Positions 3,467 to 47,885 of a stretch of DNA of 64,000 bases are shown one piece after another. This DNA is from Escherichia coli (GTDB taxonomy: Bacteria; Pseudomonadota; Gammaproteobacteria; Enterobacterales; Enterobacteriaceae), in NCBI RefSeq assembly GCF_003334785.1, contig NZ_QOWV01000015.1, one strand, 5' to 3'. The translations under genes were made by a program, and so were the position numbers. Under the pieces are notes generated by a model, which saw nothing but the letters and a program-made list of their open reading frames with translations, had not been told where the DNA came from and did no database searches. Each line of letters begins with the position of its first letter. The first letter of the stretch is position 1.

Positions 3467-3964
3467 TTAGTTTTGTGTGTCGAGGGTAGAGAGTTCTTTG
3501 TCGATAAAATACAGACCTTCGCCGCTTTTGCCTGCCAGGCTTAATTTATCAATAATCGATTTGAACAGTTTCTCTTCTTCATGCTGCTCAGAAACATACC
3601 ATTGCAGGAAATTAAATGTTGGGTAGTCCTGATTGGTCATTGCTGCATGAGCCAGTTCGTTAATTTTCTGGGTGATTAATTGTTCGTGTTTATAGGTTTC
3701 CTGGAATAATTCATCAAGTGAGGAATATTCAGCAAACGGAGATTCAACGGTATTAATACGCGGTAAATTGCCGGTATCAGTCAGATAATCAAACAGACGC
3801 TGCATATGCGTCATCTCTTCCTGGGCGTGACGGCGCAGGAACGCGGCAGCACCTTCGAAGGTATGATAGCTGCACCAGGCGCTCATTTGCTGATAAAGCA
3901 GTGAAGAGTACAGTTCCAGGTTCATCTGCTCATTAAGTTTTTCAATCATTTCTGGTTTCAGCAT
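3467..3964 (-). CDS. ftnA: Ferritin FtnA (iron storage)
   Basis: Translation [15 protein letters not shown]... (165 aa from the internal ATG of the 170-aa ORF) recognised as FtnA. Confidence 0.95.
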
Positions 3965-4135
3965 GATAGTGCTCCACAAAGGTTATATTTGTTGCTGTGG
4001 CGTCACTATAATTTGTTATTTTATTATTTGCAAAAGGTAAAATATAAACTTCAATTATTAAAAATACGAATGGGAATAAAACGCATTACCGCTATTTATT
4101 TAATCAGCGAAGATCCCCCTCGCTGATTAAAACAT

Positions 4136-4459
4136 TTAGAGAAAGACAGGGAAGGCGGAATGATGGCACTGATATGACAAAGTGAATTCCGTATTCAAAC
4201 ATAAGGAACCCGCAAAAAGGCTACAGTTGCCTACTGGCTGACCAAAGGGGATCGCGTGGGTATAGCCTTCCTGCTGGCATGCGCGATCGGCGATCCCGCG
4301 ACTGACATAATGATCGGTATGGGCATGCTGCAAAAAAGCCTGGTCATAAACCAACCGTACAATACCTGTTGCCGCGTCAACTTCGCTCACATGGGCCTGG
4401 CGAGTAACCGTACACCCCGCCAGCGTTATTAATGAAAGAGTCAGAATCAGAAGTCTCAT
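4136..4459 (-). CDS. yecR: Lipoprotein YecR
   Basis: 107-aa ORF with lipoprotein signal (LAGC lipobox); recognised as YecR. Confidence 0.88.
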   Translation of the reverse strand: MRLLILTLSLITLAGCTVTRQAHVSEVDAATGIVRLVYDQAFLQHAHTDHYVSRGIADRACQQEGYTHAIPFGQPVGNCSLFAGSLCLNTEFTLSYQCHHSAFPVFL

Positions 4460-4623
4460 GGTCCAGCCAGAAGAGTAAGAGAAAGCACTATTTTACGCGT
4501 TACAGCGCTGCGACAATGGCCGGAAAAGACGCCTGGCAGGCGCTATTTCTTGCCATCTGTAGGTGTCAGAAATGGGGGGGTTGTTTTTTGATTATCATTT
4601 TTATAACATTAAAGGGGTATTTA

Positions 4624-4639
4624 TGTGATTTGCATCACA
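4624..4639. promoter_or_regulatory. CRP binding site (azuC promoter)
   Basis: Perfect TGTGA-N6-TCACA (tgtgatttgcatcaca) about 90 bp upstream of the azuC start. Confidence 0.7.
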
Positions 4640-4721
4640 TAAAGATTGATTTTTGTGATGGTTGTCATATTATAAGCGCAAAGACAATAACACCTGTATA
4701 ACAAATGGTCGGAGTGCCGCG

Positions 4722-4808
4722 ATGAAACTGCGCAAAATCCTGAAAAGTATGTTCAATAACTATTGCAAGACGTTCAAAGACGTACCGCCAGGCAATATGT
4801 TCCGATAA
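4722..4808 (+). CDS. azuC: Small protein AzuC (28 aa)
   Basis: ORF translates to MKLRKILKSMFNNYCKTFKDVPPGNMFR, matching the AzuC small protein; too short for the supplied ORF track. Confidence 0.85.
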   Translation: MKLRKILKSMFNNYCKTFKDVPPGNMFR

Positions 4809-4810
4809 CA

Positions 4811-4838
4811 AAAAACCTGCTCCGGCAGGTTTTTTTGT
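4811..4838 (+). terminator. Rho-independent terminator after azuC
   Basis: Hairpin cctgctccgg-caggttt followed by a T-run. Confidence 0.7.
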
Positions 4839-4922
4839 GTCCTGATGACGGTGGATGTGACTATCGCTGAAGATGTGAAGTCGCTACTATAACGGCTTTC
4901 AAAATGCTATCAGGAGTTTACG

Positions 4923-5174
4923 ATGTCCCAGCCGCTGAATGCCGATCAGGAACTGGTTTCTGATGTGGTTGCTTGCCAGTTGGTTATCAAACAAATTCTG
5001 GATGTTCTCGATGTAATCGCGCCCGTTGAAGTTCGTGAAAAAATGTCCAGTCAGCTGAAGAATATCGACTTTAGTAACCATCCCGCCGCCGCAGACCCGG
5101 TCACCATGCGGGCAATCCAAAAAGCCATCGCGCTGATTGAACTCAAGTTTACCCCACAGGGTGAATCCCATTAA
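4923..5174 (+). CDS. yecJ: Uncharacterised protein YecJ (DUF2766)
   Basis: 83-aa ORF recognised as YecJ; followed by a hairpin terminator at ~5175-5210. Confidence 0.88.
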
Positions 5175-5252
5175 AAAAACCGCTGCTTCAAACAGATGAG
5201 GCAGCGGTTTCTCAAAACCTTCATCGGCGCAATGCATTAGCGCCGATGATGA

Positions 5253-5756
5253 TCAATGCAGCTGGTGTGACACGACATTCAGAACATGTTGGTCGGTCTG
5301 CACAGGGCACATACCCGCAAGTTTCGCACTGCGCACTTCATCAAGAATGGTTTGCAGCAACAGACCATCATGCTGCTGTTCTTTTTCCAGATCGCGCAGG
5401 AAATTGACGGTTGAATCATCATTCAGTTCTTTCGCTTCATCGGCTAACTGTGCCAACGTACTAGAACGTTGCTCGTATTCTTCCATCGTTTTTTGGAACA
5501 GTTCTTCCAGAGAGTTCAGTTTTTCACCGGGAACATCAATGGCTTTAACGATGGGGGTAGCGCCGACACTCTTCATAAAGTTAAACATGCGCATCATTTG
5601 GGTCACATTACTCTGTGCCTGGGCGCGAAGGAAAGTGGCGGTGCCGTTCAGACTCTGTTCAGAACACCAGTTACTCAGGTGAAGGTAGAGATTGGATGCG
5701 TAAAACTCGCGGTTCATTTGAGAGTTGAGTTTGAGAAGCATTCCAGCGGTTGCCAT
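5253..5756 (-). CDS. ftnB: Ferritin-like protein FtnB
   Basis: 167-aa ORF recognised as FtnB (YecI); ferritin fold. Confidence 0.92.
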
Positions 5757-6552
5757 ACCTAATATCCTTATATCCAGAAGTGGAGAGGTGCAAGATAAAT
5801 CAAAACACCATAATTACTGTTTGCAGAATAATTCCTTTCTGCCGGTCCGAAATGTGATCGTGGAGTCAATTCTGACGATGATCTGAAATAAGAATAACGT
5901 CTGAACGGGTATAAGAAAATGCTTAAATCATCAAGTTTATATATTTTTACATTTCATTGATGAAATCAATGTAACTGCAATGAATTTTAATGATAGTGCT
6001 TTTTGTATCTTGTTGATATTAATCAATGAATTTGAATTCATGATGAAATGATGATTTTATAAAAGGTTTTTTCATTTTTGCGAGATGGCTCTCATTATAC
6101 GTGTTCTGTTAATTAATGAGCACAGTGATAATTAATGGCGAAATGAATGGCGTGCATTTTCCACATCTTTGAGTTGCGGTTATTACACCATTTCAAAAAC
6201 TCAACGCCAGGTAATGCGGCCTATTGACTGGTTAAAAAGAAGACATCCCGCATGGGTACCAAAGACAACAAGGATTTCCAGGCTAATCTTATGGATTAAT
6301 CTGCTGTGCATTCGACAATTTGTCTGACAAATTGGCTTTCCCTTATGTCTTTTCCCGCTAAATTTATGCACGTTCTCACTGTAATTCTGCGATGTGATAT
6401 TGCTCTCCTATGGAGAATTAATTTCTCGCTAAAACTATGTCAACACGGTCACTTATCTTTTAGTTAAAAGGTAATGCTTTGTTTTCCGATTAATTTAACG
6501 AATGTCATTCGTTTTTGCCCTACACAAAACGACACTAAAGCTGGAGAGAACC

Positions 6553-13429: not shown

Positions 13430-13445
13430 TGTGATCTGCATCACA
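13430..13445. promoter_or_regulatory. CRP binding site of the flhDC promoter
   Basis: tgtgatctgcatcaca is a perfect TGTGA-N6-TCACA, ~260 bp upstream of flhD in an AT-rich regulatory region. Confidence 0.75.
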
Positions 13446-13706: not shown

Positions 13707-14057
13707 ATGCATACCTCCGAGTTGCTGAAACACATTTATGACATCAACTTGTCATATTTACTACTTGCACAGCGTTTGATTGTTCAGGACAAAGCGTCCG
13801 CTATGTTTCGTCTCGGCATAAATGAAGAAATGGCGACAACGTTAGCGGCACTGACTCTTCCGCAAATGGTTAAGCTGGCAGAAACCAATCAACTGGTTTG
13901 TCACTTTCGTTTTGACAGCCACCAGACGATTACTCAGTTGACGCAAGATTCCCGCGTTGACGATCTCCAGCAAATTCATACCGGCATCATGCTCTCAACA
14001 CGCTTGCTGAATGATGTTAATCAGCCTGAAGAAGCGCTGCGCAAGAAAAGGGCCTGA
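13707..14057 (+). CDS. flhD: Flagellar master regulator subunit FlhD
   Basis: [24 protein letters not shown]... (116 aa); an in-frame GTG at 13698 would add 3 residues. Confidence 0.96.
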
Positions 14058-29954: not shown

Positions 29955-30109
29955 CCGTTATCGTTTCCCTGGGGCCGGATATTACGCTTCTGGCCTCTTA
30001 TCCAACAGTGAGAAAACAATGGCATGTCCATTTTCAGAATACATTTAGATGGCAATAAAAAAGCCTGATCAGGTAACCCTGATCAGGCTTTACTCTCACG
30101 AAAAATCGA

Positions 30110-45654: not shown

Positions 45655-45861
45655 GTTGTCATTCCATTGAAATAGATACGAATATACGTAATAGCATAAA
45701 AAATTTATTTTTTCAGGAGGCGCAATGTATATTTTTATTACGCATTTTTTCACTGAATATGTAATATTAAAATATTTGCTTCCAAAATAACCTGTAGAAT
45801 AAATTATACTGTGCCATTTTTCAGATCATCGAGACACCTCGCAAGTTTTCTTCATCCTTCG

Positions 45862-47561: not shown

Positions 47562-47885
47562 CGGATTGGTCGCTCGCACCGCATCCGAAATTGGCAGTGT
47601 GCCTGATGCGACGCTATTCGCGTCTTATCCGGCCTACCAGAGATAGCGAACCGTAGCTCGGATAAGGCGCTCGCGACGCATCCGACATTGGCAGTGTGCC
47701 TGATGCGACGCTATTCGCGTCTTATCCGGCCTACGAGAGATAGCGAACCGTAGGTCAGATAAGGCGCTCGCACCGCATCCGACATTGGCAGTGTGCCTGA
47801 TGCGACGCTGTTCGCGTCTTATCAGGCCAGCCAGAGATAGCGAACCGTAGGTCGGATAAGGCGCTCGCGCCGCATCCGACAAATG
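47562..47885. repeat. BIME/REP cluster (about three tandem ~100-bp units)
   Basis: Repeated units of cgcatccgacattggcagtgtgcctgatgcgacgct(a/g)ttcgcgtcttatc(c/a)ggcc...agagatagcgaaccgtagg with small variations. Confidence 0.85.

Follow-up and report, generated by a model that had tools for sequence, protein, structure and literature searches.

The azuCR (isrB) locus in a 64-kb sequence from Escherichia coli: a 28-codon gene on a CRP-repressed dual-function RNA

Introduction

The closest described system to the locus reported here is azuCR of Escherichia coli K-12, a familiar case of catabolite repression acting on a dual-function RNA. Its protein product, AzuC, for which the K-12 sequence is identical to the one described below, has been reported to associate with the membrane, and to bind and stimulate GlpD (PMC8915982). 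The transcript is also a base-pairing small RNA, AzuR, which represses cadA and galE, as proven by compensatory mutations (Raina 2022, PMC8915982). The AzuR pairing region lies within the azuC coding sequence, and translation and pairing interfere with each other (PMC8915982). The RNA binds both ProQ and Hfq, and compensatory mutations have also shown that pairing with FnrS blocks the synthesis of AzuC (PMC8915982).

Expression of this RNA responds to the carbon source. AzuC-SPA levels are higher in glucose than in glycerol and rise when crp is deleted; the RNA behaves like a CRP-repressed transcript (PMC8915982). CRP-dependent repression is documented there with a citation of Hemm 2010, and CRP repression of azuCR is also covered in a review (PMC12612679). 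Both PMC8915982 and PMC12266141 mention two predicted or annotated CRP sites in the azuCR promoter. The second of these papers (Ekdahl et al. 2025, PMC12266141) reported additional repressors of the isrB/azuCR promoter, with coordinates.

Here we analysed a 64,000-nucleotide stretch of E. coli DNA (the window), in which an earlier reading of the letters alone (the first-pass annotation) had picked out azuC together with a CRP site and a terminator. We have very little doubt that this region is the azuCR (isrB) locus of the E. coli chromosome, with the AzuC mRNA and the AzuR small RNA made from one CRP-repressed transcript.

Results

Identity of the 28-codon gene

The frame that the first-pass annotation had assigned to the 28-amino-acid protein AzuC proved correct to the base. 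It is initiated by ATG, contains 28 codons followed by TAA (Table 1), and encodes MKLRKILKSMFNNYCKTFKDVPPGNMFR. The peptide matched the NCBIfam equivalog model NF033642 with a score of 75.9 bits (cut-off 30; E = 1.3e-21), with residues 2-27 of the peptide aligned to profile positions 1-26 of 26. Its length, 28 residues, falls within the 27-28 residues expected of AzuC, and it contains the AzuC core, MKLRKILKSMF..YC.TFKDVPP.

Comparison with the K-12 annotation, a check that the first-pass annotation had proposed, led to the same gene. At the matching place, the annotation of K-12 MG1655 has azuC (b4663, 1987873-1987959) and the ncRNA azuR (b4434, 1987843-1988001), and the transcript from 4680 to 4838 was identical to K-12 azuC/azuR at 159 of 159 nucleotides, with no differences. 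The order of genes around azuC (tyrP, yecH, ftnA, yecR, azuC, yecJ, ftnB, araFGH) is as in K-12, and azuC is at the orthologous position, in the yecR-yecJ interval and near both ftnA and ftnB. Of 5426 complete E. coli genomes, 5420 contain the 463-bp stretch between yecR and yecJ, and all the E. coli records listed have azuC annotated there.

The K-12 locus, known as azuC/azuR, AzuCR, IsrB or IS092, therefore shares with the window the same transcript, the same flanking genes (yecR, yecJ, ftnA and ftnB), the same promoter hexamers and both CRP sites. Four single-base changes, at 4506, 4574, 4581 and 4633, separate the two. All of these lie 5′ of the transcript and none touches a motif; the change at 4633 (C here, T in K-12) falls within the spacer of CRP site 1 (TTTGCA versus TTTGTA), which is non-contacted. 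None of the sequence evidence contradicted the assignment to azuCR. The locus is no different from the published K-12 system, and the azuCR system found here is already known (Raina 2022; Hemm 2008, 2010; Ekdahl 2025).

Table 1. Features of the azuCR region, in window coordinates except in the last row, which uses the coordinates of each locus named.
Feature	Position	Strand	Basis and remarks
NarP motif AACATTAAAGGGGTAT	4605-4620		K-12 1988061-1988076 (PMC12266141); identical to K-12; reverse strand has TACCCCT
PhoP motif	4618-4635		PMC12266141; mapped to the window
FNR motifs	4623-4642		K-12 1988039-1988058 (PMC12266141); mapped to the window
CRP site 1, perfect palindrome TGTGATTTGCATCACA	4624-4639		Centre at -48.5 from the transcription start
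-35 hexamer TTGATT	4646-4651	+	Promoter scan; 16-bp spacer to TATTAT; invariant in 9/9 loci
CRP site 2, TGTGATGGTTGTCATA, one mismatch	4654-4669		Centre at -18.5
-10 hexamer TATTAT	4668-4673	+	Promoter scan; ends 7 nt before the 5′ end at 4680; invariant in 9/9 loci
AzuCR (IsrB/IS092) transcript, 159 nt	4680-4838	+	K-12 azuR b4434 annotation (1987843-1988001), mapped
FnrS pairing site CACCUGU	4691-4697	+	25-31 nt 5′ of the azuC AUG (PMC8915982)
Shine-Dalgarno GGAG	4711-4714	+	Read from the sequence; 7 nt 5′ of the ATG
azuC coding sequence, 28 aa + TAA	4722-4808	+	Translation, family profile, K-12 annotation
Predicted AzuR base-pairing region, inside azuC coding sequence	4762-4797	+	Local duplexes; limits are a prediction
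Intrinsic terminator: A6, hairpin CCTGC-TCCG-GCAGG, T7	4810-4836	+	Folding
azuC-to-yecJ stretches outside Escherichia	L036 1501-2061; L037 and L038 1501-2083; L039 1501-3195; L040 1501-1780		

Short genes and length thresholds

By itself, an ORF of 28 codons would mean little here, because 39 ORFs of at least 20 amino acids overlap positions 3500-6000. We took azuC to be real because it is identical to an annotated, experimentally studied gene and because of its conservation pattern, described below. In an ORF listing made at 20 amino acids, the azuC frame appeared only as a 48-residue ORF beginning at the TTG at 4662, which cannot be the azuC start codon because it is upstream of the transcription start. 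The default minimum of the listing is 60 amino acids, and it is plausible that azuC was hidden from the supplied ORF track by this kind of length limit.

Two other ORFs that overlap the region were dismissed. An 89-residue ORF on the + strand (4432-4701) runs through the promoter and the CRP sites, and a 48-residue ORF on the - strand (4665-4811) is antisense to azuC; neither has support from annotation or from homologues.

The window also contains the exact sequences of two other annotated genes of fewer than 30 codons: yecV (30024-30068; 14 amino acids, MSIFRIHLDGNKKA), and yobI (45725-45790; 21 amino acids), which is annotated as a stress response small protein. As yecV and yobI are, like azuC, below 30 codons and in the same window, the blind spot of length-thresholded ORF tracks is systematic.

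Promoter and CRP sites

The transcription start published for the K-12 RNA (1988001; PMC8915982) corresponds to position 4680. With this as +1, the -10 hexamer occupies -12 to -7 and the -35 hexamer -34 to -29. The consensus CRP site that the first-pass annotation had placed 5′ of azuC is exact: TGTGATTTGCATCACA matches the CRP core consensus TGTGA-N6-TCACA at all 10 specified positions. Exact matches to this consensus are rare, with two in the 64-kb window compared to 0.07 expected, and at least two in none of 100 shuffles. The only other exact palindrome in the window, TGTGATCTGCATCACA, is at 13430-13445, between uspC (- strand) and flhD (ATG at 13707). We take this to be the site at which CRP activates the flhDC promoter; with a 5′ UTR of about 198 nt, its centre would be near -71.5.

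A second CRP site, left out of the first-pass annotation, occupies the space between the two promoter hexamers and runs into the -10, sharing its first two bases. This is the overlap of operator and core promoter that is expected for a sigma-70 promoter repressed by CRP. The centres of the two sites are 30 bp apart, or roughly three helical turns, and the sites are on the same face of the helix. Such an arrangement suits a repressor, not an activator of class I or class II, in line with the published repression by CRP, and we infer from the position of site 2 that CRP bound there would occlude the promoter. Counting against the overall reading of the locus, IPOD-HR occupancy was reported to change mainly 5′ of the annotated CRP sites (PMC12266141).

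Transcript and terminator

The first-pass annotation had also placed an intrinsic terminator 3′ of azuC, and the hairpin and T7 run found there form a stable fold. The A6 run (4810-4815) is followed by the core hairpin (4816-4829) and by T7 (4830-4836). The 46 nucleotides from 4800 to 4845 folded with an energy of -18 kcal/mol (z = -4.8), and none of 200 shuffles was as stable. The hairpin is rich in G+C, a U tract follows it, and the annotated 3′ end at 4838 is two bases past T7. A consensus terminator scan did not list this terminator, and instead reported an unrelated hairpin at 4530-4542. We infer that the miss is an artefact of the tool, in which the A and T runs pair with each other and use up the T tail.

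The hairpin reported by the scan is a feature of the yecR-azuC spacer. Here, on the + strand, the G+C hairpin CGCCTGGCAGGCG (4530-4542) is followed by a G7-TTG-T6 run (4574-4590). Conservation of this stretch does not extend to other Escherichia lineages, which have an 11-bp deletion there; the stretch probably belongs to the promoter or leader of yecR, on the other strand.

A scan of positions 4000-5400 with Rfam 15 (E <= 1) gave no model at its gathering score, and none for AzuCR/IsrB. The best match, to STnc370 (33.4 bits compared to a threshold of 54), was on the opposite strand and was driven by the terminator alone. As no Rfam family matched usefully, the assignment of the RNA rests on the K-12 annotation and on the papers. 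These differ in small ways: the RNA is 164 nt long in PMC8915982 versus 159 nt in the RefSeq annotation, and the ORF is placed at +40 to +126 in that paper, while counting from the annotated 5′ end gives +43 to +129, stop codon included. These discrepancies in RNA length and ORF position leave the verdict unaffected.

Predicted base pairing

We predicted duplexes with the published AzuR targets by tiled local prediction, as prediction over the whole length gave meaningless long duplexes. The best local duplex with cadA paired AzuCR nucleotides 83-114 (4762-4793) with cadA -16 to +16, at -29.7 kcal/mol, and covers the ribosome-binding site and start codon of cadA. The best local duplex with galE paired nucleotides 90-118 (4769-4797) with galE +13 to +44, at -20.9 kcal/mol. 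In a crude test of whole-length duplexes, 3 of 300 shuffles were as good for cadA, and 201 of 300 for galE.

The FnrS pairing site, CACCUGU, is complementary to the 5′ end of K-12 FnrS, GCAGGUG. In E. coli the target is CACCTGT, which leaves a terminal G-U pair with the 5′ G of FnrS. In three other Escherichia lineages and in GCA_013422945 it is CACCTGC, which gives a full Watson-Crick 7-mer, and it is absent from Cronobacter-type 5′ UTRs. Control by FnrS may be limited to part of the AzuC family.

Conservation of AzuC and of its control region

A homologue search returned 99 AzuC-family proteins, with Pfam PF28150 on all 99. The query was the 47-residue in-frame translation from 4665, which pads the 28-residue peptide. 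Source names among the homologues include Shigella, E. albertii, Citrobacter, Klebsiella, Raoultella and Leclercia, and also Cronobacter, Siccibacter, Buttiauxella, Pluralibacter and Intestinirhabdus. The peptide hardly varies across the family: MKLRKILKSMF[NDE][NSQ]YC[KNR]TFKDVPP, with 3-5 further C-terminal residues ending in F or FR.

At the level of DNA, we compared loci from three divergent Escherichia lineages with five non-Escherichia loci (Cronobacter condimenti, two Logan assemblies and two NCBI assemblies), with the window as the ninth sequence. The Escherichia loci came from a scan of genome contigs with the back-translated pattern MFNNYCK, and the non-Escherichia loci were reached via over-long gene calls in the same frame. 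The scan returned the three Escherichia loci and 30 matches in unrelated organisms, which were taken to be due to chance. Outside E. coli, residue 12 is E or D, which made the pattern too strict. The scan also returned no standard E. coli representative even though the pattern fits the window and K-12, so that absence from its results means nothing.

Variation among the coding sequences was strongly periodic. In the first 23 codons of eight loci, from at least two genera, there were 2, 1 and 16 variable columns at codon positions 1, 2 and 3, respectively, and pN/pS of the loci compared to the window ranged from 0 to 0.12; retrieval of the related loci by protein similarity inflates the apparent conservation of the protein, but not the period-3 pattern. 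The codon-periodic variation and low pN/pS indicate selection on the AzuC protein. Residues 2-19 of AzuC form an amphipathic helix with a net charge of +6, whose hydrophobic moment (0.60) exceeded that of shuffled sequences (0.26 +/- 0.13; 37 of 5000 were as high). This agrees with the published membrane association of AzuC.

The block TTGATT-TTTGTGA-N6-TCATATTAT, which contains the -35 hexamer, CRP site 2 and the -10 hexamer, was invariant in all nine sequences, its 6-bp spacer aside. Within it, both half-sites of CRP site 2 (TGTGA and TCATA) were invariant in 9/9 loci while the spacer varied. The half-sites of CRP site 1 (GTGA-N6-TCACA) were kept in 8/9, again with a free 6-bp spacer. CRP site 2 is the more strictly conserved of the two. 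The spacers of the CRP sites differ in nearly every lineage, and conserved half-sites with a free spacer are the look of a site contacted by a dimeric regulator. The Shine-Dalgarno GGAG was kept in place in all aligned loci, and the AUG was conserved. A hairpin followed by a T run was kept in eight of the nine, the Cronobacter-type stem having a different sequence (CCTGCC-GCCT-GGCAGG). Most of the 5′ UTR, and everything 5′ of about 4590, diverged among the aligned loci. The NarP motif (Table 1) was partly conserved in other Escherichia lineages, as GGGGTA, GGAGTA and GAGGTA.

Alternative readings of the transcript and of CRP site 1

Could the transcript be only a base-pairing small RNA (IsrB/AzuR), in which the 28-codon ORF is incidental and has no protein function? 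ORFs as short as azuC are abundant by chance, the RNA came to light as a small-RNA candidate (IS092/IsrB), its base-pairing targets are proven, and the levels of AzuCR RNA and AzuC protein are discordant under some conditions (PMC8915982). However, the periodic variation seen across Escherichia, Cronobacter and the other loci speaks against this, because constraint on an RNA alone would not be codon-periodic. The Shine-Dalgarno sequence and AUG are conserved, and the peptide is almost unchanged across loci in which the FnrS-pairing 5′ UTR has diverged. Moreover, tagged AzuC has been detected, ribosome profiling supports its translation, and AzuC co-purifies with GlpD (PMC8915982). Given codon-periodic conservation together with published detection of the protein, we excluded an incidental ORF, which is extremely improbable. 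A role for azuCR as, in part, a regulated leader of yecJ, with read-through of the terminator coupling yecJ to the CRP-controlled promoter, is also improbable, if less extremely so. The azuC gene is on the same strand as, and directly 5′ of, the DUF2766 (yecJ) gene in Escherichia, in Cronobacter and in two Logan-assembled loci, while its upstream neighbour changes from yecR in Escherichia to an MFS transporter outside it. This azuC-yecJ pair is a conserved unit outside Escherichia too (Table 1); in GCA_036620675 one aminotransferase gene lies between azuC and the DUF2766 gene (an insertion in locus L039). The spacer from 4839 to 4922 is well conserved within Escherichia, and a promoter scan of its + strand found no promoter-like site for yecJ. 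Set against these points, a promoter scan of this simple kind has low sensitivity, gene order kept among close relatives says little about co-transcription, the terminator 3′ of azuC is strong and conserved, and the RNA is detected as a discrete ~160-nt species (PMC8915982).

The preferred reading, of a CRP-repressed transcript that encodes AzuC and also acts as AzuR, assigns both operators to CRP. The palindrome at site 1 might instead be mainly an FNR site, or be shared by CRP and FNR, in which case repression there would be anaerobic and the glucose signal would act via site 2 only. By coordinate mapping, the published FNR motifs fall exactly on the DNA of the perfect CRP palindrome, and derepression was seen on mutation of the motif or deletion of fnr (PMC12266141). 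Site 1 is also less strictly conserved than site 2, being degenerate in GCA_013422945 and having CGTGA in Cronobacter. The FNR consensus is TTGAT-N4-ATCAA, which the core of the palindrome, GTGAT-N4-ATCAC, matches at 4 of 5 positions per half-site. On the other hand, CRP sites are distinguished from FNR sites by a G:C pair in the half-site, and the half-sites here (TGTGA/TCACA) have this CRP-type pair and match the CRP consensus at 10/10 positions. CRP-dependent repression is, moreover, documented for this RNA, as described above. Since both motifs are the same DNA, the published binding-site mutations cannot tell FNR from CRP: any change that abolishes the FNR motif abolishes the CRP site as well, so that the reporter data cannot distinguish the two proteins. 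The CRP and FNR readings of the palindrome can both hold. We consider a palindrome given over mainly to FNR, or shared, to be possible but rather unlikely, and hold equally tentatively that FNR makes a real contribution there, adding to repression by CRP rather than replacing it. A speculative combination of the yecJ and FNR ideas is a functional azuCR-yecJ unit, in which partial read-through would put YecJ under the control of CRP (and FNR), with the palindrome as a shared CRP/FNR operator. This is quite unlikely. If true, YecJ, an uncharacterised DUF2766 protein, would act in the glycerol, galactose and acid-stress circuit of AzuC, and the shared operator would integrate the signals for carbon and oxygen in a single DNA element.

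Other differences from a related chromosome

Two further parts of the window differ from the chromosome of E. coli H6, to which it is otherwise 99.1% identical. The first ~810 bases do not align with it. At the place of 1-810, E. coli H6 has pgsA and genes for tRNA-Gly, tRNA-Cys and tRNA-Leu; ARAGORN found no tRNA in positions 1-1500 of the window. Other E. coli genomes contain an IS3-family transposase to which bases 134-1000 correspond at up to 99.9%, and positions 1-810 look like an IS insertion or a rearrangement next to yecA in the source strain. The other difference, between ruvB and znuB, is of about 198 extra bases compared to E. coli H6 at 47651-47784. A stretch of about 134 bp at 47651-47784 is present twice, with about 90% identity, and looks like a duplicated intergenic repeat.

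Discussion

The sequence data above, read together with the published work on K-12, support a CRP-repressed azuCR locus, and suggest how it would work. A sigma-70 promoter (TTGATT/TATTAT) would start transcription at 4680, to give an RNA of about 159 nt that ends at the terminator. Without glucose, cAMP-CRP on both sites would block RNA polymerase, so that the RNA would be made mainly on glucose. As an mRNA, it would be translated from the GGAG and AUG (4711/4722) into the cationic, amphipathic, 28-residue AzuC. As AzuR, it would pair through approximately 4762-4797 with cadA and galE and repress both, with translation competing for the same nucleotides. Under anaerobiosis, FnrS pairing at 4691-4697 would block the translation of AzuC.

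The first-pass annotation was right about AzuC, the CRP site and the terminator, but was incomplete, in that it left out the second CRP site, the role of CRP as a repressor, the dual function of the RNA and the published assignment of the palindrome to FNR. The main value of the case is as an example of real genes hidden by length-thresholded ORF tracks, azuC having been recognised despite the threshold. Small additions to what is published are the pattern of conservation of the two CRP sites across genera, the conserved linkage of azuC to yecJ, and the finding that the FNR motif and the CRP palindrome are the same DNA.

How does AzuCR compare with other dual-function RNAs? As described in PMC8916003 and PMC12612679, the E. 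coli Spot 42 (spf)/SpfP and the Vibrio cholerae VcdRP are, like AzuCR, CRP-repressed small RNAs that regulate carbon metabolism, and each combines a base-pairing RNA with a very small protein. Their sequences are unrelated to AzuCR, and their proteins and targets differ. SgrS/SgrT is, like AzuCR, a dual-function RNA of E. coli, in which the RNA and the peptide both act on sugar metabolism. However, SgrS is activated by SgrR, whereas AzuCR is repressed by CRP, and the target of SgrT is a transporter, which it inhibits, while that of AzuC is an enzyme, which it stimulates. Finally, the pairing region of AzuCR is inside the ORF, while in SgrS-SgrT, RNAIII and VcdRP the two regions are separate (Raina et al., PMC8915982). 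Because its pairing region is inside the ORF, the two activities of AzuCR compete directly.
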